From positions 224,001-288,000 of the forward strand of contig CAWJYV010000008.1 in the NCBI GenBank assembly GCA_963847185.1: a stretch of DNA of 64,000 nt, read 5' to 3'. The notes under the pieces are model-generated. The model ran no database searches. It was given only the letters and a program-made list of their open reading frames with translations, and was not told the origin of the DNA. This DNA comes from an uncultured Methanosarcinaceae archaeon. GTDB taxonomy: Archaea > Halobacteriota > Methanosarcinia > Methanosarcinales > Methanosarcinaceae. A program made the position numbers and the translations under genes. Below are positions 44,104-54,116 of this stretch, one piece after another. The first letter of the stretch is position 1, and every line of letters starts with the position of its first letter.

Positions 44104-46083
44104 GTGATAGGAATTTCCAGCTCATGCTGTACTTCTGACAATGAAAGTAAAGATAAAACTCCTTATAATTTGACAATTGCCTTCATAGGCAACCCAAGTG
44201 TTGGTAAAAGTGTTTTTTTCAGTAGGCTTACAGGAGTAGGGGTCGAAGTTTCAAATTACCCTGGCACGACAGTTGCACTTAAAAGAGGAACTGTAAAGGC
44301 CCGGGGTAAAACTATTGAGATAGTTGACCTGCCTGGAATTTATTCTCTTGGGATTACAAACGAAGATGAGAGGGTAACAAAGAAATTTCTCATAGAGGAT
44401 AAACCGGATATTATAGTCAATGTCCTGGACGCCAGCAGGCTTGAGAGAAATCTCTATCTTACCTTGCAGCTTCTTGAACTTGATATTCCTATGGTTATTG
44501 CCCTAAACCAGGTAGATCTGGCTGCAGATCTTGGAATTCTAGTTGATTCTAATACTCTCTCGGAACTTCTTGGCTTGCCTGTTGTGCCAACTGTTGCAAC
44601 CTGGGGAATAGGACTCGATGAAGTCATGCTCGTAGCTCTCGAAGAGCAGGGAAAAGTTCAGAAACATCATAGAGTAGGGTACAGTAACTGGATCCGACAG
44701 GCTCTGTCTACACTTGATTATTCCTTCCCTCACATTTCTCCAAGCGTAAAGATTGCAGCACTTCTTAATGATGCCGAATTTGTGGAACTCTGCTGTATGC
44801 CTCCTGAAGCTAATTCTCTTCTGGCTTCTGCAAGGCGGTTGAGGCAGAACCTTGAGATGGAACATGGAATTTCGGTGCCGGATACGGTTGCAAGAGATCT
44901 GTATGGAGAAGCTGGATATATAGTTGACAGTGTGGTTTCAAGGTTCGAACCCAAAAAAAGCATAAAAACAAAGATCGATTCAATACTTACCTCTCCCAAT
45001 TTCGGGATTCTTGTGCTTATATCTGCTCTACTCCTTACTTTTCTTCTTGTCTTCAGGGTAGGAGGTTTCCTTGAGACCTGGATCGTAAATGAGATTTTTG
45101 AACCCTATGTGATTCTTCCTGTGGATAGTATGCTTTCTAACGCGTCGCCTATCCTGAGAAACCTCATTCTATACACTCTGAGGGGTATAGAAGCCGGATT
45201 TGCAATTGCAATTCCTTATATCGCAGTCTTTTACGCTATTCTTTCTATATTCGAAGATTCCGGATATCTAACAAGGGCGGCATTTCTTCTGGACAATTTC
45301 ACTCATAAACTAGGGCTGCACGGGAGAGCTGTGATTCCGCTTGTTCTGGGTTTTGGCTGTAATGTCCCTGCAATCATGGCAGTTCATTCTCTTGGCACGC
45401 GGCGGGAAAAGAGGATAGCTTCTGTCCTGATCTCTCTAATTCCCTGTTCTGCAAGAACAGTTATTATTCTGGGGCTTGTTGGAACCTTTGTAGGCTTCTG
45501 GCCTGCGGTTTCAATATATGTTATGGAAGTTATCATCATCGTTGCCCTTGGATGGATTCTAGGGAAAACCCTGCCGGGACAAAGAAGCGGCTTCATAATG
45601 GAAATGACTCCTCTCCGAAAACCGGAACTGAAATCTACTCTCAGAAAAACCTGGATGAAGAGCCGGGAGTTTCTCTTTATCGCTTTTCCGCTGCTGCTCC
45701 TTGGAAGCGCGTTTCTTGGAGTTGCTGATGCTCTCGGCCTTCTTTCACTTTTCCAGAACTTTGTAGAACCTATATCTGTAGGTCTGCTGGGGCTTCCTGC
45801 ATTTGCTGCGACAGCTCTTGTATTCGGGATCCTTAGAAAAGAAATGGCTCTCCAGATCCTGGCCGTACTTGCAGGTACAGCTAACTTTGCAGCTGTAATG
45901 ACGCCCGTTCAGATGTACCAGTTTGCTGTCATCACGACGATTTATATCCCGTGTGTCGCAACTATTGCAGTACTTAAACATGAGCTTGGCCTAAAAGATA
46001 CGGTCTCTATAGCCCTTTTCACTATATTTCTGGCTCTTGGAGCAGGTATTCTGATTAGGATTTTCGGGCCCTCTTTTCTGTAA
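44104..46083 (+). CDS. feoB: Ferrous iron transporter B
   Basis: GNPSVGKS, NYPGTTV, DLPG, NQVD; FEDSGY, GFGCNVPA, IPCSAR. Confidence 0.96.
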   Translation: MIGISSSCCTSDNESKDKTPYNLTIAFIGNPSVGKSVFFSRLTGVGVEVSNYPGTTVALKRGTVKARGKTIEIVDLPGIYSLGITNEDERVTKKFLIEDKPDIIVNVLDASRLERNLYLTLQLLELDIPMVIALNQVDLAADLGILVDSNTLSELLGLPVVPTVATWGIGLDEVMLVALEEQGKVQKHHRVGYSNWIRQALSTLDYSFPHISPSVKIAALLNDAEFVELCCMPPEANSLLASARRLRQNLEMEHGISVPDTVARDLYGEAGYIVDSVVSRFEPKKSIKTKIDSILTSPNFGILVLISALLLTFLLVFRVGGFLETWIVNEIFEPYVILPVDSMLSNASPILRNLILYTLRGIEAGFAIAIPYIAVFYAILSIFEDSGYLTRAAFLLDNFTHKLGLHGRAVIPLVLGFGCNVPAIMAVHSLGTRREKRIASVLISLIPCSARTVIILGLVGTFVGFWPAVSIYVMEVIIIVALGWILGKTLPGQRSGFIMEMTPLRKPELKSTLRKTWMKSREFLFIAFPLLLLGSAFLGVADALGLLSLFQNFVEPISVGLLGLPAFAATALVFGILRKEMALQILAVLAGTANFAAVMTPVQMYQFAVITTIYIPCVATIAVLKHELGLKDTVSIALFTIFLALGAGILIRIFGPSFL

Positions 46084-46239
46084 CCTTCTTTTTGTATCTT
46101 AAAAAACCTTTTTTTAATTTATTGAGAAGTGTTTTTAGTATTGGAAAATAGCTTTTTTCTTATTGACGTTTCATTTTTCATTATGGGAGACAAGATCATA
46201 TAGGCCTAGCACAATATTTATATATTAACAATGTTGTTC

Positions 46240-46570
46240 ACATCTTTCTGAATTGTTTTTCTGATGCCGCAAATTATTAATACTTGGCATATCGTGTTTA
46301 TCTCCGATGACCCGAATTACCAATCACGTACACAAAAACGTGTTGAGTGTTATCATGGATATTTTCGAAATGGATCATTTCCGCGAGCCTGAGATTGAAG
46401 AGGTTCAATTTTTCCTTGAAAACGCTGGAACTCATGGTTCCATTGTTAATGAAACCGCTGTGGAAATGGATTGTACACCCTCCAAAATCCAATCTCGGGA
46501 GACTGTATTAGTCGATTTCGATGAGTCCCTCTCATCCATAAAGTAACACTTCCCCCTGACAATTTGGCTC
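46240..46570 (+). ncRNA. Candidate structured ncRNA (alternative: 79-aa ORF 46307-46546)
   Basis: TATA-like TTTATATA at 46217; four nested long-range stems plus local hairpins; boundaries approximate. Confidence 0.4.
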
Positions 46571-46712
46571 CCTTGCTGAAATCCAACTCTTTAACTAATT
46601 CTATTTTCAAGTTATATTGGGTTTCATTCCCTTATTTTGAATTACAAAGTTTTTATTCTTATCTGTTTTGTAATAAACGTATTACTGCATCCCCGAATAG
46701 AATGAATCTGAT

Positions 46713-46761
46713 CCTTCTACTCTATTAAATATTATTTGACCCTTCTACTCTATTAAATATT
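46713..46761 (+). repeat. 21-bp direct repeat CCTTCTACTCTATTAAATATT x2 (28-bp period)
   Basis: Copies at 46713-46733 and 46741-46761. Confidence 0.85.
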
Positions 46762-47294
46762 TTACCTATTTTGCATAAAATATATAAAATTTTTATATCA
46801 GATATTTTTTTCTTCTCTAAAATTCTCTTTTTCCTCAGTTTGTCCTTTAATTTTGGGGGCGGATACAGTCATTTTAGAGTAAATATTTTCTTTTCAACCA
46901 GGTTAATCCTCTACGTAAATTTTTCTGAATTTCAGCTTGCCTTATTCAAGATCTTTTGAGCCCGTTGAATTTCTTTTTCCGTTTTTCGACTCTTTAGCAA
47001 CCTTGCTTTAATAAATTTCACGACATAGGCTTCTTTCTGTCCTGAGGCTGTAAAAATAGCTTTCTCAGGAAGGTTTATAATGTGCTTCTTATTATAATTT
47101 AATTAAAAGTTATTGAAGTAAGGAAAAATACTATCGATTACCATATATATATAAAGTAAGATTACATCTACTTTGTACATATTATTTAAAATTGTCTTAA
47201 TAAGCCAATTTAATTACAATTGTTCTGATGTGCCTTACTGCTAGAGAAGCTGTAAGAGATCAGAAAATCGGGACCCAATTTATAGAGGTATTAT

Positions 47295-48290
47295 ATGAGA
47301 ACTGGACAGAGAGACGTGCACAATACGCCGCTTAAAAGGCGCCTATCAATAAGCTACGAGGAGCTCGAGACTCTCAAGAAATCGATTAAAGTTTCGGTTC
47401 TCAATGAACTGCGGGCCGAAATGGAAAACGTTTCTGACGATGAATCCTTAAAGGACACCATTCTTTCTGAAATCAAGGCTGAGCTGCCGGAAATTCCTGA
47501 TCCTGCTTCACTCAAAGCTTCAATTCTTAACGAATTGAAAGTGGAATTGAACACTTCCAGAGAAAATGAGTCTGGAGGGGCTGATAGGCGGCTTAAGGAA
47601 CTTGCCGGGGTTCAGGATGGGCTCGTCCGGGAATTACTTGATCAAAAAACTCTTATTAAAAAACTGGAAACGGAGCTTACAAATCTCACTAAAAAACTGG
47701 AAGATATCAAAAGCCCTCTTCCTGCCTCTTCTCCTTCCATTCATTTCACTCTCCCTGAAGACCCTCTGGACCTTCCTCCTCTTTCCAGAAAGCCGAATTA
47801 TAAGTCTGAACTCAGAAACGAAAATTCTTCAGGACACAGACTGACTGAATTCAGGGAAGCTCCTGCTCCCCTCCCAGGCACCAATGCAAAAGTTCAATTG
47901 AGAATTAAAGAAATTGAGCCTAAAGAGCTTGATAAAGAAGAGAAAGTTGAAACCAAATGTGAGTATATTATTGCCGAGAGTGGAGATCACAGACGGTTCA
48001 AAGGCAATATGAGGCAGCAGTCATCTATGAAAGCTGAGCCTGTAAAACAACCGCCTCTAAGACAATCTGCTCCTTTGAGACCGCCGTCTTTCAAGCAGAC
48101 TCCTCCTTTGAGAAAGTCTGCTCCTGTAGAGGCAGATTGTACAAGAGTCCCACCTGCAGATGATTATAAGTGTGAGTATATAATCGCTGAAAAGACTCAT
48201 AAAAAAAATATAATTGAAGAGTCCGTGGTTGTGCGGGATACTGATGATGCGGAAATAATTACCTGCAGCCGGAAAATTCTCGGGGCGTAA
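47295..48290 (+). CDS. Hypothetical coiled-coil protein directly upstream of smc
   Basis: RBS GAGGT; three (L)KxSILxE(L/I)KxE repeats, a coiled coil, Pro-rich linker, KCEYIIAE x2; 53 bp before smc. Confidence 0.85.
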   Translation: MRTGQRDVHNTPLKRRLSISYEELETLKKSIKVSVLNELRAEMENVSDDESLKDTILSEIKAELPEIPDPASLKASILNELKVELNTSRENESGGADRRLKELAGVQDGLVRELLDQKTLIKKLETELTNLTKKLEDIKSPLPASSPSIHFTLPEDPLDLPPLSRKPNYKSELRNENSSGHRLTEFREAPAPLPGTNAKVQLRIKEIEPKELDKEEKVETKCEYIIAESGDHRRFKGNMRQQSSMKAEPVKQPPLRQSAPLRPPSFKQTPPLRKSAPVEADCTRVPPADDYKCEYIIAEKTHKKNIIEESVVVRDTDDAEIITCSRKILGA

Positions 48291-48343
48291 GAGGCTTAAA
48301 AAACAGAAAAACCCTCAAAAACGCGAAATTACAGAGGCATTCT

Positions 48344-51300
48344 GTGTACATAAAAGAGATTGAGTTCGTTAATTTCAAATCCTTCGGAAAAAAAGTGAAG
48401 ATCCCCTTTTATAACGACTTTACCACTATTTCCGGCCCTAATGGGAGTGGAAAGTCAAACATCATAGACGGGATTCTCTTTGCGCTCGGGCTTACAGGCT
48501 CCAGGACTCTTCGGGCTGAGAAACTTACAGACCTGATTTACAACGGTGATGAGGCAAAAAAGCCCGATTTTGCCCAGGTTACTATTCGTTTCGACAATTC
48601 CGATCGCAAGTTACCTCTTGAGCTTGATGAAGTCGAGGTTTCAAGAAAGATCAGGCGGACAAAAAGCGGGTACTACAGCTATTTTTACTTTAACGGGAAA
48701 TCCGTAAATCTCGGAGAAATACATTCCCAGCTCTCAAAAGCCGGAGTGACGCCTGAAGGTTACAATGTGGTAATGCAGGGAGACGTTACTCAGATAATCT
48801 CCATGACTCCCGTGGAAAGGCGAAAGATTATTGACGAAATCGCAGGGGTTGCAGAATTTGACGAGCGCAAGCAAAAGGCTCTCGGAGAACTCGAGATCGT
48901 CAGACAGCAAATCGAGCGCGTGGATATAATCCTTGAAGAGGTAAGGCTCCAGCTTGAAAAACTTTCAGGAGAACGCGACCAGGCCCTGAAATATCAGGCA
49001 CTTAAAGCTGAAAAAATCAAATTTGAAGGCTATGTCCTGCTTTCTAAACTCAAAGACGCAAAGGCAGAGCTGCAGAATGTTGATAAGGAGCTCGTTGGAA
49101 AAGAAGAGCATCTTGAGAAAGTTCAGGTTCTTCTGGACGAAAGGATGCAGGAGCTTCAGGTCCTTGAAGACACGCTGGAAAAGCTTTCTCTTGAAATCCG
49201 GAAAAAAGGAGAAGACGAACAGCTCCAGGTCAAGAGAGAAATCGAAGAGACTAAGGGAGAGATCTCTCGCTGTGTGGATAGTATCGAGCTTTCGGAATCC
49301 GAACTTGAAGAGGCTGATTCGCGGCGCAGGAAAGCCTTTTTAGAAATTGATTCCACAAAGGGTAAAATAAGGGACCTTGAGGAAAAAATAGATTCAGAGA
49401 ACCTGAGAAAGGACAGTTTATCTTCAGAGCTTTCCGAGCGCAAAACAGAACGAATGTTGCTCCAGAGCAGGATTGCAGATGTAGATGCTAAATTTGCAGC
49501 GACAAGAGATGAGCTCATGGCTGCCAAAAAGAGACTTGAGGATATCAAGGACGAGAAAAACGAGCTCATCCGAACAGAAAATAGGCTTCTCGATACTCTC
49601 AGGAGAAAGTCTTCCGAACTCAGGGACATCGAAAACCAGATAAAGGATGCACAGGCGGCAGTTGCTAGCTCTGATAGCGATACTCTTTCCGTCCAGTATG
49701 AGATTGAAAAACTTTCCGAAAACATGGAATCCCTTATTCGGGACCGGGACGATATTGAAAGCAGTCATTTCAGGATCAAGGAAGATGTCAAGAAACTTGA
49801 AAGCAAGCTCCTTAAGCTCCAGCAGGAGTATGCAATCGCTGAAGCCAGAGTCAGGGCCTCTGAGCATGGAGGAAGCTATTCCAAAGCAGTGGATATGGTG
49901 ATCGGGGCTGCGCGGCAGGAAGACCTCTTCGGAATTCACGGGACTATTGCCCAGCTTGGAAAAGTGGACCAACAATATTCAACGGCTCTGGAAATTGCTG
50001 CAGGAAATCGAATGCAGGCAGTTGTTGTAGATACTGACGCCGATGCTGCCGAAGCTATCGAATATCTGAAGCGTAGAAAAGGCGGGAGAGCAACATTTCT
50101 TCCCCTCAACAAAATGAAGGACTCAAGGCGGCTTGACAATCTAAGTTATGAGAATGGAGTAATAGGATACGCAATTGATCTTATAGAATTTGATCCTGAC
50201 TTCGAGCCTGCTTTCTGGTATGTCTTTCAGGATACTCTTGTAATGGAAAACCTTGCAAGTGCCCGCCGTCTTATGGGAAAAGCAAGGATGGTAACTCTTG
50301 AAGGTGAGCTCCTGGAAAAAAGCGGGGCAATGGTAGGAGGGTCCGTCTCTTCCAAATCCGGAATTTCTTTTACGGCTTCGGAAAAGGATAAACTCATCGA
50401 GCTCGCTGACGAAATAAAGTCTTTAGATGCAAGCCGGAATGCGGTTATAACTAAACAGGACAGCATTGAAAGCCACGTTTTCGAATTGAGCCGGAAAATT
50501 CGGGATTGTGAAGCCACAATTTCACGGAAGGAACATCAGCTTGAGGAGATTGCTGGCAGGGAAGCTAAACTTGCAGAACTTCTTGAAGCTAAGCAGGCAG
50601 ACTTCAAAGCTATTGAAGATTCAAGGACTGAACTCAGAGCTGAGATGGATAGAGTTCTTGTGGTAAAAGCTGAAAAAGAAAAAGCTGTGGCTGAACTTGA
50701 GGGCCAGGTTTCAGAACTTGAAGCAAAACTTGTCGATTCTCCGCTGCCTGAGTTCAATAAAAAGGTAGAGTTTGTTGATGAAGAAATCAGGAGACTCGAC
50801 AGCAGAATCAGGGATACTGAAGCCAGCCTGAATGCTCTGCAGCTTGAAAAAGAGTATGCAGAACAGAAAATTGCCGAGGCAAAGGAACTCATCAGGGACC
50901 TGGATGAAAAGAAAGCCTCAAGGCTGGAAAAAGTTAACTCTCTTAAGTCAAAAATCAGGGAACTTGAGGAAAATCTGGAGCAAAAGAAAAGCCGGGAACT
51001 TGAACTCTCCGATGAGCTTCTAGGTCTCCAGAAAGAAAGAGAGAGCGTTCAGGCTGAACACGGAGCTGTCAAGCGCAGGGTCAGCATTGCGACAACTACG
51101 CTTGAAAAAGCAAAACAACAGGTCCTTATGCTTATAGCGACAAAAAATGCGCTTCTTGAACAGGAAAAACAGTTCCGGGAAGAAGTCCGGAAAAGAGGTA
51201 TTGAGGAGACTGACGAGGTTCCGAATTACGAAACGGTCTATATGAGAATTCAGGCAATCGATGAAGCCCTCAGAAAGCTCGAGCCCGTTAATATGAGAGC

Positions 51301-51871
51301 AATTGACGAGTACAACGAGGTTGAACTCAGGTTTTCGGACCTGCAGAGAAAGCGTGATACTCTATTTACCGAAAGGGAACAACTCCTTGAACGCATCGGC
51401 CAGTATGAACAGCTGAAGAGAGATGCCTTTATGGAAGCTTATATACATATAAATGCTAATTTCAAGGATATTTTCCATGAGCTTTCTGACGGCATGGGTG
51501 AGCTTTTACTTGACAACCCTGAAGATCCCTTTGCAGGAGGAATGACTCTTCGGGCTCAGCCCAAAGAAAAGACTCTCCAGAGAATAGAAGCTATGTCAGG
51601 AGGGGAAAAAAGTCTCACAGCTCTAGCTTTCATTTTTGCTATCCAGCAGTACCGCCCTGCTCCCTTCTATGCCTTTGATGAGATTGACATGTTCCTGGAC
51701 GGCTGGAATGTTGAAAGGGTTTCAAGAAGGGTAAAATTCTCAGGGTCAAAAGTTCAGTTTATAGTTGTTTCCTTAAGAAAACCCATGATTCAGGCTGCAA
51801 GCAGGACAATAGGGGTTACAATGCAGGAAAATAACATAACTAGCATCACCGGGGTGAGGCTTAATGGCTGA
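48344..51871 (+). CDS. smc: Chromosome segregation ATPase SMC
   Basis: GPNGSGKSN, hinge GGRATFLPL, MSGGEKS, FDEID; 1175 aa. Confidence 0.98.
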   Translation: MYIKEIEFVNFKSFGKKVKIPFYNDFTTISGPNGSGKSNIIDGILFALGLTGSRTLRAEKLTDLIYNGDEAKKPDFAQVTIRFDNSDRKLPLELDEVEVSRKIRRTKSGYYSYFYFNGKSVNLGEIHSQLSKAGVTPEGYNVVMQGDVTQIISMTPVERRKIIDEIAGVAEFDERKQKALGELEIVRQQIERVDIILEEVRLQLEKLSGERDQALKYQALKAEKIKFEGYVLLSKLKDAKAELQNVDKELVGKEEHLEKVQVLLDERMQELQVLEDTLEKLSLEIRKKGEDEQLQVKREIEETKGEISRCVDSIELSESELEEADSRRRKAFLEIDSTKGKIRDLEEKIDSENLRKDSLSSELSERKTERMLLQSRIADVDAKFAATRDELMAAKKRLEDIKDEKNELIRTENRLLDTLRRKSSELRDIENQIKDAQAAVASSDSDTLSVQYEIEKLSENMESLIRDRDDIESSHFRIKEDVKKLESKLLKLQQEYAIAEARVRASEHGGSYSKAVDMVIGAARQEDLFGIHGTIAQLGKVDQQYSTALEIAAGNRMQAVVVDTDADAAEAIEYLKRRKGGRATFLPLNKMKDSRRLDNLSYENGVIGYAIDLIEFDPDFEPAFWYVFQDTLVMENLASARRLMGKARMVTLEGELLEKSGAMVGGSVSSKSGISFTASEKDKLIELADEIKSLDASRNAVITKQDSIESHVFELSRKIRDCEATISRKEHQLEEIAGREAKLAELLEAKQADFKAIEDSRTELRAEMDRVLVVKAEKEKAVAELEGQVSELEAKLVDSPLPEFNKKVEFVDEEIRRLDSRIRDTEASLNALQLEKEYAEQKIAEAKELIRDLDEKKASRLEKVNSLKSKIRELEENLEQKKSRELELSDELLGLQKERESVQAEHGAVKRRVSIATTTLEKAKQQVLMLIATKNALLEQEKQFREEVRKRGIEETDEVPNYETVYMRIQAIDEALRKLEPVNMRAIDEYNEVELRFSDLQRKRDTLFTEREQLLERIGQYEQLKRDAFMEAYIHINANFKDIFHELSDGMGELLLDNPEDPFAGGMTLRAQPKEKTLQRIEAMSGGEKSLTALAFIFAIQQYRPAPFYAFDEIDMFLDGWNVERVSRRVKFSGSKVQFIVVSLRKPMIQAASRTIGVTMQENNITSITGVRLNG

Positions 51872-52907
51872 ACTTATGGATAACACAGGAATGGCTCTGG
51901 AAGTTCCCAGGCTCTCAGTTCATAATGTTCAGGAATCAGAAGAAAATAACTCTCTTTTTTCAGATCCTGAGACCTTCGGACTCCCAAAAACTCTTTCATG
52001 CCTTGGAATTGACTGGAATCAGCTTGATATTTCTGAGTTTGATACCTATGAACCCCTTGGTATACTGGTTGAGCTTTCCCAGAGTGGAAAGATCGATCCC
52101 TGGGATATCGATATTCTACAGCTCACTGACAGTTTCCTGGGGAGAATAGAAGAACTCCAGAAAATGGATCTCAGAATCTCTTCTAGAACGCTCCTTTATT
52201 CTGCTATTCTCCTTCGCATGAAATCATCGGTAATCCTTGAGGTAGAAGAGGAAGAAACCGATTCTCATGATTCCGATTTTCTCGATGAACTCAATCTTCC
52301 TGAACCTGATGAGTTTCCTATCCCTAAGCTTCCGGTACGCCGTGTCTCTACAAGGCCTGTCACTCTCAATGAGTTAATTCTTGAGCTTAAAAAAGCCGAA
52401 AAAATCCTCTCCAGAAAAAATGAAAAAAAGGTTCTTCAGGCTGCAGAAGAGCGTCATCTCTTTGAGAGCCCTCAGCTCACTACAGGCGATATTCTTGGTA
52501 TTGCGCACGATGAAGCTATCGGCTCCCGGCTGACACTTATGTGGGAAAGGCTTTCTGAACTGTTTATGACAGATAATGTAGTTGTTTTTTCCAGCTTCCT
52601 GGAAACAAGCGACGACAGGATTATGGACTATCTCTCCCTGCTGTTTCTGGCTTCAAACAGGAAGGTCTGGCTCTTCCAGAATGAACTTTTCGGAGAGCTG
52701 CATATATATCCGGGAGAGGGCTCCGGATTTTCCACCGAAAATAATCCTCCTGTCTTTCATGAGATGAAGTGGGAGTCAGAAAGTGAAGTTCCAGAGCTTC
52801 AAATTATGAGTTCTCCAGAACCATGTTTTGCTTGTGAAACCTCTCTGGATGAGGGGTCAGACGAAGAGTATGAAGAGACAATACTTGAGACAATATCTTT
52901 TAATTGA
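51864..52907 (+). CDS. scpA: Kleisin ScpA
   Basis: IDPWDIDI, LLYSAILLRMKS, RPVTLNELI, YLSLLFL, QNELFGEL; overlaps the smc stop. Confidence 0.93.
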   Translation: MAELMDNTGMALEVPRLSVHNVQESEENNSLFSDPETFGLPKTLSCLGIDWNQLDISEFDTYEPLGILVELSQSGKIDPWDIDILQLTDSFLGRIEELQKMDLRISSRTLLYSAILLRMKSSVILEVEEEETDSHDSDFLDELNLPEPDEFPIPKLPVRRVSTRPVTLNELILELKKAEKILSRKNEKKVLQAAEERHLFESPQLTTGDILGIAHDEAIGSRLTLMWERLSELFMTDNVVVFSSFLETSDDRIMDYLSLLFLASNRKVWLFQNELFGELHIYPGEGSGFSTENNPPVFHEMKWESESEVPELQIMSSPEPCFACETSLDEGSDEEYEETILETISFN

Positions 52908-53000
52908 AGCCTGCAGTCCAAATTTACCTTATTTAATTCACCTGATTAACAATAGTCTCATTAAATAGTAATTTTTGTTCTTTTTTTGGATGTGAAAACA

Positions 53001-54116
53001 ATGAGTGAGCTTGAAGTCATCGAAGCGGCTCTTTTTGCTGCTGGCAGGGCAGTAAGTCTCGAGAAGCTTGCAAAAATAACCGGAAAACCTAAAAAAACCG
53101 TCCTTTCGGCAGTACAGGAACTGATGGAGGCTTACTCTTCACGAAAGTCGGGCATGGAGATTCTTGACCTTGGAGAGCGTTATGTCATGCAGGTCAAGCC
53201 CGAATATTCCGAACTCATGAGAGAGGTAGCCCCAAAAGAACTCTCTGCTCCAAAACTCCGTACTCTTTCCATGATTGCCTATCACCAGCCCCTCCTGCAG
53301 TCAGACCTTATTGATATGAGGGGCAGTGGAGCTTATGATCATATAAAGGAACTTATAGAGCGGGGTTTTGTAGAGTCCATACCGTGTGGAAGAAGCAGAC
53401 AGCTCTCCACAACTTCTCTCTTTGCGGATTACTTCGGGCTTCAGAAAAACGATCCTAAGGCCATAAAGGAAAAAATCCTCGAACTTCTGAGATCTCAGGG
53501 AGGGCAAAGTGAAATCAACCTGTGGATTGGAAAGAAGACAATTGCTGTAACACCCATGTACGAATCTCTTATGGGCATGTGCGGGATTAAGGATTACTTT
53601 GTAGCTAATGCCTACTCACCTTCAAAGGAAGAGATCTCCCTTTTACTTGAGGCGGACGTGCTGGTGGTTTCGGCAGGATATTCAGACACCGTAAGGCAAT
53701 ACTGTGATGGGGAAATCCTTGAAGTTCATTCAACAACTTTTGAGGACTTGATAGAGGCGGTCTCTTTACTCGCCGAAGAACTTCCCCATGATATTAACTC
53801 TAAAATAATTGAAGACACTATTCAGAAGATTCGAGAGACCAGAGAAAAGTATGTTTCTTCCTCTGTTCTGATTAAGACCAGGGTAAAACCTGCAACTGAG
53901 ATGGTTTCAAAAATCGTACAAGATCTTTCCCTTGGGATTTCGGCAGATGGTATTCTTGTTGCTCCGGATTATGGAAATTTAAAGAGCGGAATTAAAATAG
54001 GGAACGGGGCTGAAATCCTGATCCCCACTCACCGCAGTATAGAAGGGGATCTTCTGGATAGAGTCTGTAAAAAATACGAGTCTCTTCTTGAAGGTCTGAA
54101 AAAATTTGAAGATTGA
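53001..54116 (+). CDS. scpB: ScpB with an extra ~190-aa C-terminal domain
   Basis: IEAALFAAG, TLSMIAYHQP, TTSLFADYFGL, then an additional domain starting IAVTPMY; ATG 53001. Confidence 0.9.
   Translation: MSELEVIEAALFAAGRAVSLEKLAKITGKPKKTVLSAVQELMEAYSSRKSGMEILDLGERYVMQVKPEYSELMREVAPKELSAPKLRTLSMIAYHQPLLQSDLIDMRGSGAYDHIKELIERGFVESIPCGRSRQLSTTSLFADYFGLQKNDPKAIKEKILELLRSQGGQSEINLWIGKKTIAVTPMYESLMGMCGIKDYFVANAYSPSKEEISLLLEADVLVVSAGYSDTVRQYCDGEILEVHSTTFEDLIEAVSLLAEELPHDINSKIIEDTIQKIRETREKYVSSSVLIKTRVKPATEMVSKIVQDLSLGISADGILVAPDYGNLKSGIKIGNGAEILIPTHRSIEGDLLDRVCKKYESLLEGLKKFED

Follow-up and report, generated by a model that had tools for sequence, protein, structure and literature searches.

A divergent DUF7518 relative encoded directly upstream of smc in Methanosarcinaceae: a candidate accessory factor of archaeal Smc-ScpA

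The 64,000-nucleotide stretch of DNA analysed here (the window) comes from an uncultured Methanosarcinaceae archaeon (GenBank assembly GCA_963847185.1, contig CAWJYV010000008.1, positions 224,001 to 288,000 of the forward strand). Directly upstream of its smc gene lies a single open reading frame (ORF) at 47295..48290 on the + strand, called gene X in the following, which starts with ATG and encodes 331 amino acids (aa). From profile homology it is near certain that the gene X protein is the Methanosarcina form, divergent and enlarged, of a phylum-wide family catalogued in Pfam as DUF7518 (PF24362). The linkage of this family to smc is strongly supported by gene order, and a functional tie to Smc appears likely on the same grounds. 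That the protein is an accessory factor of archaeal Smc-ScpA is, in our judgement, an evenly balanced proposition, while its binding mode and its effect are matters of guesswork. New in this analysis is the assignment of the window gene, by its sequence, as an enlarged DUF7518 variant beyond the reach of the Pfam model.

A preliminary description of the window, made from the letters alone, had noted an ORF on the same strand as smc and 53 nucleotides (nt) before it, with short helical repeats, a coiled coil, a Pro-rich spacer, the motif KCEYIIAE twice and a terminal AEIITC. The translation agrees with it in each of these features. The parts of the locus are given below, with the predicted local distance difference test (pLDDT) of the AlphaFold2 model where it applies.

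47284..47289, + strand: Shine-Dalgarno-like AGAGGT, 5 nt 5′ of the gene X ATG; the GTG of smc is also preceded by an AGAGG box.
47295..48290, + strand: gene X, 331 aa, coiled coil plus disordered tail, a divergent DUF7518 relative according to its ORF, orthologues and profile comparisons.
47295..47429, + strand: N-terminal segment, residues 1-45, RDxxxxxLxRRL...EELETLKK, with a mean identity of 0.93 in 121 genus-level sequences.
47382..47570, + strand: three 21-residue helical repeats, residues 30-50, 51-71 and 72-92, seen in the translation and helical in the AlphaFold2 model.
47580..47714, + strand: coiled-coil core, residues 96-140, with the signature G109-L-V-R-E113-L-L-D-Q-K118, defined by alignments; pLDDT 92-98.
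47715..47954, + strand: Pro-rich disordered linker 1, residues 141-220; pLDDT mostly <50 from residue 144.
47955..47978, + strand: strand motif 1, KCEYIIAE, residues 221-228; 26 Methanosarcinales proteins all have Y224, I225 and A227.
47979..48167, + strand: Pro/Arg/Gln-rich disordered linker 2, residues 229-291, of varying length, mean identity 0.39; pLDDT <50.
48168..48191, + strand: strand motif 2, KCEYIIAE, residues 292-299, the counterpart in the alignment of the family-wide terminal I-I-V-A motif.
48210..48281, + strand: C-terminal predicted β-hairpin, residues 306-329, including AEIITC (319-324); AlphaFold2 strands at 306-316 and 319-329, pLDDT 57-73.

The coiled-coil stretch RRLKELAGVQDGLVRELLDQKTLIKKLETEL corresponds to residues 98-128, and the Pro-rich stretches to residues 141-215 and 250-290. 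Repeats 2 and 3 are an insertion present in Methanosarcina, in the sister genus g7 and in Methanoperedens-type proteins, and absent from other Methanosarcinaceae genera in a 26-sequence alignment. AlphaFold2, given a 26-row alignment, predicts confident helices at 21-63 and 70-139, disorder from 140 to 300 and a weaker hairpin at 306-316/319-329. The model of a Methanoculleus-type member follows the same plan: the rod is predicted confidently, LIMQxDGTLK forms a small hairpin, and the motifs lie in a disordered tail.

How does this protein relate to DUF7518? The Pfam entry is a ‘family of unknown function’ of about 100-250 aa from Halobacteria and Methanomicrobiales. Searches of Pfam (even at E-values up to 1) and NCBIfam return no family for the gene X protein, no recognisable DNA-binding domain and no ScpB or winged-helix match. 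In a six-frame search, PF24362 (cut-off 27 bits) has no match in the window genome and matches only 1 of 12 further genomes of this genus, so that by Pfam’s operational rule the protein is a divergent relative and not a member. The homology emerges when profiles are compared. Profile A1, built from 26 Methanosarcinales sequences, retrieves at E 1e-8 to 1e-12 proteins that also pass PF24362 (L134 with 79 bits, L138 with 36 and L112 with 33.5), the haloarchaeal-type protein scoring 79 bits and the Methanoculleus-type ones 29-36. Homologues from Methanoculleus and from a Methanomicrobiales archaeon bear the name ‘DUF7518 family protein’ at their source. Furthermore, A1 aligned by hhalign with 20 haloarchaeal proteins scores 76.7% with E 2.1e-5 over 40 coil columns, the coil being the only stretch aligned, and language-model features place the gene X protein near DUF7518 clusters (0.90 and 0.87).

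An alignment of 28 family members contains two elements throughout. One is the signature of the coil, G-[LIV]-x-x-E-[LIM]-L-D-x-K, which retains G, E, L, D and K (G-L-T-x-E-L in haloarchaea); the other, near the C-terminus, is a strand motif with acidic residues after x-I-[IVY]-A. Methanogen members have an additional copy of the strand motif farther upstream, EYIVAS or EYIIAE. In this alignment, strand motif 1 of gene X matches the EYIVAS-type motif of Methanoculleus-type members, and strand motif 2 matches DLIYAEEED, DIIVA and EIIVVD of distant members; the N-terminal segment aligns with RDIIIERLEQKL and KDAKIRFLERELxEREKE in distant relatives. The gene X protein thus has profile homology to DUF7518 and shares with it the coil signature (G-L-T-x-E-L-[LV]-[DE]-x-K there, G109-K118 here), an acidic disordered tail with an I-I-V-A motif (of I-I-[VI]-A type here) and, by a yardstick of our own, the place directly upstream of smc, here across 53 nt. 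It differs in being three times as long, with an additional segment at the N-terminus and the three helical repeats, and where DUF7518 has one terminal motif copy it has two internal copies and an extra C-terminal hairpin.

Within the phylum, a six-frame PF24362 search of 401 sampled genomes gives matches in 173, of which 124 lie above the cut-off; among 14 named control genomes only Haloferax volcanii is matched. A 772-aa frame with a sub-threshold PF24362 match (L206) was dropped as unrelated, having neither a family-profile match nor smc beside it. All of the best 30 PF24362 matches, which are haloarchaeal homologues, end in D[DE]IIVA, and the DDIIVA-plus-stop coding pattern occurs once per genome, at the DUF7518 gene, in each of the five haloarchaeal genomes searched. 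The preliminary description had suggested a coiled-coil gene with an acidic ‘IIxA’-like end upstream of smc in other Euryarchaeota; these haloarchaeal genes fit that statement.

Linkage to smc was followed at several depths. In the order, matches were obtained in 65 of 151 genomes by six-frame search, and smc lies directly downstream on the same strand at all 30 loci listed. Profile A1, run over the 401 genomes, matches 140 of them, including 52/52 Methanosarcinaceae; at 40 places from nine coded families, which we chose from the listed rows and did not draw at random, smc is directly downstream in 38. The two exceptions are second copies, and in each of these genomes the first copy adjoins smc. 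With PF24362, smc follows on the same strand 6-130 nt downstream of the best 30 matches (30/30) and directly downstream of 9/9 further real matches. The preliminary description had proposed a profile check of synteny with smc; carried across the phylum, the linkage held, and it is stronger than had been claimed. A conserved gene cluster with smc, one of the features expected of a subunit of Smc-ScpA(B), is what is found for gene X.

Second DUF7518-like copies away from smc occur in two genomes of one genus (L147 2409-2897 and L148 2394-2978). The L147 copy ends before the strand motif and sits between histidine-kinase genes. We treat both as paralogues or remnants and not as counter-examples.

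The distance between the two genes varies by lineage. It is 44-66 nt in the genus of the window, 117-136 nt in the sister genus g7 and 39-40 nt in genus g8; Methanoperedens-type loci, with proteins of ~220 aa, have gaps of -1 to +18 nt. The latter range holds for 11 of 13 non-Methanosarcina loci, the other two being those of genus g8. In families f17, f9 and f22 the gaps are -4 to +15 nt. Where the genes overlap or are separated by 1-5 nt, co-transcription is hard to avoid.

Such stop-start overlaps and 1-5 nt gaps, found in many lineages, would also suit a quite different role, in which gene X acts mainly in cis as an upstream ORF that sets the level of Smc by translational coupling while its protein has little function. 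We regard this as highly improbable, given how the protein is conserved. The orthologue alignments show gene X to be a real gene under selection. Orthologues are present in 12/12 other genomes of the genus (six-frame search), and purifying selection is strong and position-specific, falling on ELLDQK, on Y-I-x-A and on the terminal D[DE]IIVA of haloarchaeal members. In the 121 genus-level sequences, identity to the residue of the gene X protein averages 0.96 at residues 220-227 and 0.99 at 291-298, ranges that each comprise seven of the eight motif residues and one flanking residue, against 0.39 in the linker between them (motifs 96-99%, linker 39%). A gap of 44-66 nt and a separate ribosome-binding box for smc, as found in the genus of the window, also speak against regulation in cis.

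In the same 121 sequences two [YF]I[IV]A motifs are found in 119, a ‘DAEIIT’-like C-terminus in 113, and linker 1 holds the genus-level islands EDPLDLPPLS (155-164) and FREAPAxLPGTxAKVQL (186-203). Across 26 Methanosarcinales sequences E113-K118 (ELLDQK) is invariant. The pattern [DE]Y[IL][IV]A[DES] occurs four times in the genome (ORFs of at least 100 aa, 1.5 million residues), and two of these occurrences are within the gene X protein. In these alignments the tail has the pattern that is the signature of short linear motifs in a disordered region; the preliminary description had spoken of multivalent short linear motifs, and by the AlphaFold2 model and the 121-sequence alignment together the motifs are conserved islands in a variable, disordered tail.

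Single-sequence searches make the family look narrow, since a word-index search found 171 homologues and an exhaustive search of cluster representatives only 20. The named ones among the 171 are from Methanosarcina and are mostly called ‘hypothetical protein’, two being ‘uncharacterized coiled-coil protein SlyX’. The family is catalogued yet uncharacterised, and the literature searched, which does not extend to subscription journals, has no paper that mentions DUF7518 or links it to SMC. Titles and abstract starts showed nothing on a gene preceding archaeal smc, and the phrase ‘upstream of smc’ led to one unrelated paper. The same search gave nothing on HVO_0688, and HVO_0689 is merely named as SMC within a synteny method.

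The genes downstream of gene X and the gap before them are as follows.

48291..48343, + strand: gap between gene X and smc, 53 nt, with no T-run of five or longer; it contains an A-rich TTAAAAAA box, and AGAGGC precedes the GTG.
48344..51871, + strand: smc, 1175 aa, GTG start; Pfam SMC_N 1.8e-69 and SMC_hinge 2.3e-36.
51864..52907, + strand: scpA (kleisin), with an 8-nt overlap with smc; Pfam SMC_ScpA 1.6e-15.
52986..54116, + strand: scpB, 376 aa; Pfam SMC_ScpB 4.3e-40.

Within the genus the 3′ half of the gap, which includes the AGAGGC box and the GTG, hardly varies. The Pfam domain of ScpB covers residues 11-155 only, leaving an extra C-terminal part of ~220 residues, and the total length of the protein is alike, 364-377 aa, in 13/13 Methanosarcinaceae loci.

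The census was also run in the opposite direction: the DNA upstream of smc was examined at 24 loci of families that had few or no profile matches.

9 loci (f9 three, f17 three, f10 two, f22 one): an X-like ORF with coil, acidic tail and terminal I-I-V-type motif, at gaps of -4 to +145 nt.
3 loci (f15): a homologous rod ending in LxFF.
1 locus (f12): a 52-aa ORF with a GLTTELLDV remnant.
11 loci (f7 five, f21 two, f19 two, f13 one, f23 one): nothing alike upstream of smc.

In f9 the family profile backs homology for two of three ORFs, and it does so for f11, f15 and f22 as well (proteome-level E ≤5e-5); it gives no significant match for the third f9 ORF (L214), for f17 or for f10. PF24362 backs f11 and, weakly, f22, and no other upstream ORF. 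The ORFs of f17 and f10 are similar in position and architecture and are therefore counted as X-like, not as demonstrated homologues. In f12 (L227) the 52-aa ORF ends 40 nt before smc, and its GLTTELLDV resembles the coil signature; it may be the remnant of a decayed gene. In f15 (L211 1066-1482; L229 4948-5418, minus strand; L230) the N-terminal segment and the rod are kept, with a profile E of 4e-5.

An SMC-hinge search places SMC in 327 of the 401 genomes. In family f16 the hinge is found in 0/54 genomes and gene X in 0/54 by either profile, which counts as one event; the f16 genomes listed are 92-99% complete, and one of them is also without a match to the Smc N-terminal domain. The whole family seems to be without canonical SMC. 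Judged by these searches, gene X is a gene that tracks smc closely and is not universal among SMC-bearing lineages.

Several observations weigh against the gene X protein being a partner of Smc. Its tie to Smc is drawn wholly from gene order, which can be kept for co-regulation alone, and the 40 places of the A1 survey were picked by ourselves. In the SMC-bearing family f7 both profiles find gene X in 0/12 genomes, and none lies upstream of smc in 5/5 loci; the same is true of 6/6 loci in f19, f21, f13 and f23. As the gene is not found in several SMC-bearing lineages, it can be no obligatory Smc subunit. The f15 proteins end in ALRFFHxxRN (LxFF) in place of the I-I-V-A tail. Furthermore, the A-rich box in the gap of the window genus is TATA-like and possibly a promoter of smc itself. 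In the sister genus g7 (L014-L017) the enlarged gap of 117-136 nt has a run of six T, then a TATA-like AT-rich box ~45 nt before the smc start, which resembles a terminator followed by a separate smc promoter. Taken together, these boxes suggest that smc may have its own promoter. Contigs from the RNA libraries of two studies do bridge the gap in the window, one of 1046 nt (47399-48445) and one of 216 nt (48256-48472); they may contain DNA and are no proof of a single transcript.

These points would fit a protein that is co-regulated with smc and works independently of it, as a cell-cycle, division or nucleoid scaffold whose motifs dock on another machine. Gene order would then be the sole tie, lineages that keep smc without gene X would be expected, and a separate smc promoter would be natural. 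Division systems often use small coiled-coil adaptors with disordered tails, and some upstream ORFs have weak, sub-threshold Pfam matches to ZapB-like coils, which show a generic coil only. We nevertheless consider an independent function unlikely, although it deserves to be taken seriously. The adjacency survives in very distant lineages at translational-coupling distances (-4 to +18 nt) and also at loci that no longer have scpA beside smc; f16, the one family lacking SMC, lacks gene X as well, and no second conserved neighbour was seen.

The fate of scpA and scpB bears on which part of the complex might be addressed. Kite subunits such as ScpB and MukE, of Smc-ScpAB and MukBEF, are small, encoded in the smc/kleisin cluster and thought to be dimeric. 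The gene X protein resembles them as a small accessory protein from such a cluster; it differs in that kites have tandem winged-helix domains, in its place upstream of smc and not after scpA, and in its co-existence with scpB in Methanosarcinaceae. At 20 longer loci, which overlap with the other sets, scpA follows smc in 17 and scpB is present in 13, all of them Methanosarcinaceae; no scpB was found downstream at the four non-Methanosarcinales loci that keep scpA, and in the remaining 3 loci the pair of gene X and smc is kept without scpA after smc. Loci L164, L165 and L166, from Methanoperedens-type genomes and a family f2 genome, keep the upstream gene and show no scpA or scpB in the ~4 kb downstream of smc.

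PMC7055376 reports that binding between ScpA and ScpB was undetected in vitro for archaeal pairs, that scpB was not found in Halobacteria and that 3/28 Methanomicrobiales have it. The missing interaction and the absence of scpB from many lineages leave a place for another Smc-ScpA partner. Could a gene X dimer then take the position of the kite on central ScpA and become a true third subunit, its acidic motifs pairing with a basic, Pro-rich ScpA strand (KLPVRRxSTRPVTL in the window)? Both Halobacteria and Methanomicrobiales, which according to PMC7055376 lack scpB entirely or for the most part, carry the gene X family; in the alignment ScpA has a conserved central segment that is basic and extended, and the gene X motif is acidic and strand-like. 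We still judge such a replacement improbable. The models predict a rod with a disordered tail and no winged-helix fold, scpB sits beside scpA together with gene X in 13/13 Methanosarcinaceae loci, Methanoperedens-type loci keep gene X by smc though scpA is not adjacent, and the strand pairing is a proposal of our own. The preliminary description had called the protein a putative fourth component of the archaeal SMC-ScpAB system. It was right to the extent that gene X heads the smc cluster; the term is doubtful when used generally, because haloarchaea and Methanoculleus-type genomes carry the gene with no scpB found downstream and several smc lineages are without the gene.

With the accessory-factor reading, a mechanism can be sketched in conditional terms. 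The preliminary description had proposed a dimeric adaptor that may load, unload or anchor SMC; the dimer, its binding to Smc, ScpA or ScpB and such a role are conjectural. The gene X protein would oligomerise via its rod. By our own heptad assignment the a/d core would run through L110, L114 and Q117, with G109, E113, L115, D116 and K118 at positions b, c, e and g; a conserved stripe outside the a/d core resembles an exposed surface for binding, more than just the seam of a dimer. Stripe and strand motifs might be two docking elements on the Smc-ScpA complex, and in Methanosarcina the additional motif copies would raise the valency. The target is likely Smc or ScpA and not ScpB, given that the motif persists in haloarchaea, which have no scpB. 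The protein may act as a non-catalytic factor that adjusts the place or the time of Smc engagement with the chromosome, through recruitment, release or control of the ATPase. The fullest version, in which DUF7518 is a lineage-wide Smc-ScpA partner in Halobacteriota that dimerises, docks by I-I-V-A on Smc or the kleisin, controls loading or stalling, fills the place of a missing or non-binding kite and is multivalent in Methanosarcina, is a tentative one, to which we give somewhat less than an even chance.

Attempts to localise a contact were uninformative. A complex prediction with alignments for the full gene X protein, the Smc head (N part 1-215, C part 965-1175) and ScpA (55-295) gave a score of 0.00, which is no verdict and no evidence either way. 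Between 29 Smc sequences of gene-bearing lineages and 9 of lineages lacking the gene, conservation differs by scattered conservative changes (K17R, A214 and a few others) with no indel pattern, and 26 ScpA sequences with the gene against 8 without it show scattered conservative differences only; no docking patch emerges from this crude test, which is confounded by phylogeny. Profiles A4 and A1 find only generic coiled coils among sequences of solved structures (E at least 0.01). No fusion of the gene X family to another domain was found among proteins of 581-2000 aa, which is weak evidence.

Comparable arrangements and working modes exist elsewhere. Disordered acidic linkers that carry a short hydrophobic strand dock on partners in the acidic C-terminal tip of bacterial SSB and in SUMO-interacting motifs; the likeness to the gene X tail is an analogy in working mode only, with no sequence relation. 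In bacteria ParB, XerD and MatP are non-catalytic proteins which decide where SMC complexes engage or leave DNA. The gene X protein is like them in its proposed role only, and whereas they bind specific DNA sites via known folds, it has no recognisable DNA-binding domain. A precedent in gene arrangement is haloarchaeal: PMC10869688 states that 42 of 54 RdfA-family genes adjoin SMC-like sph genes and that in Haloferax volcanii rdfA (HVO_2174) and sph3 are both needed for one phenotype, cell shape. There too, a small protein gene is kept directly beside the gene of a long coiled-coil SMC-type ATPase. The partner of RdfA is the SMC-like Sph and not canonical Smc, its phenotype is cell shape, and the likeness to gene X drawn here is one of gene arrangement.

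Upstream of gene X, ~1.2 kb of AT-rich DNA (46084-47294) separates it from the preceding long ORF (44104..46083) and contains only short ORFs (62-79 aa). An Rfam search of 46000-48400 gave no match. No RNA contig from four runs covers 46800-47268, which is not readable as the position of a transcript start.

Lastly, the proposal is open to direct test, as the haloarchaeal version has only ~100 residues and the family has a match in Haloferax volcanii. This organism is genetically tractable. Even if the protein turned out to be unrelated to Smc, divergent ‘hypothetical proteins’ of Methanosarcinaceae and Methanoperedens-type archaea are now assigned to DUF7518, and the features of the family are defined: the coil stripe, the I-I-V-A motif and the place before smc. 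Because it precedes smc in methanogens and haloarchaea, at coupling distances and with an invariant terminal peptide, the family offers a concrete and cheap candidate for a missing partner, one that may bear on how archaeal Smc is recruited and regulated.

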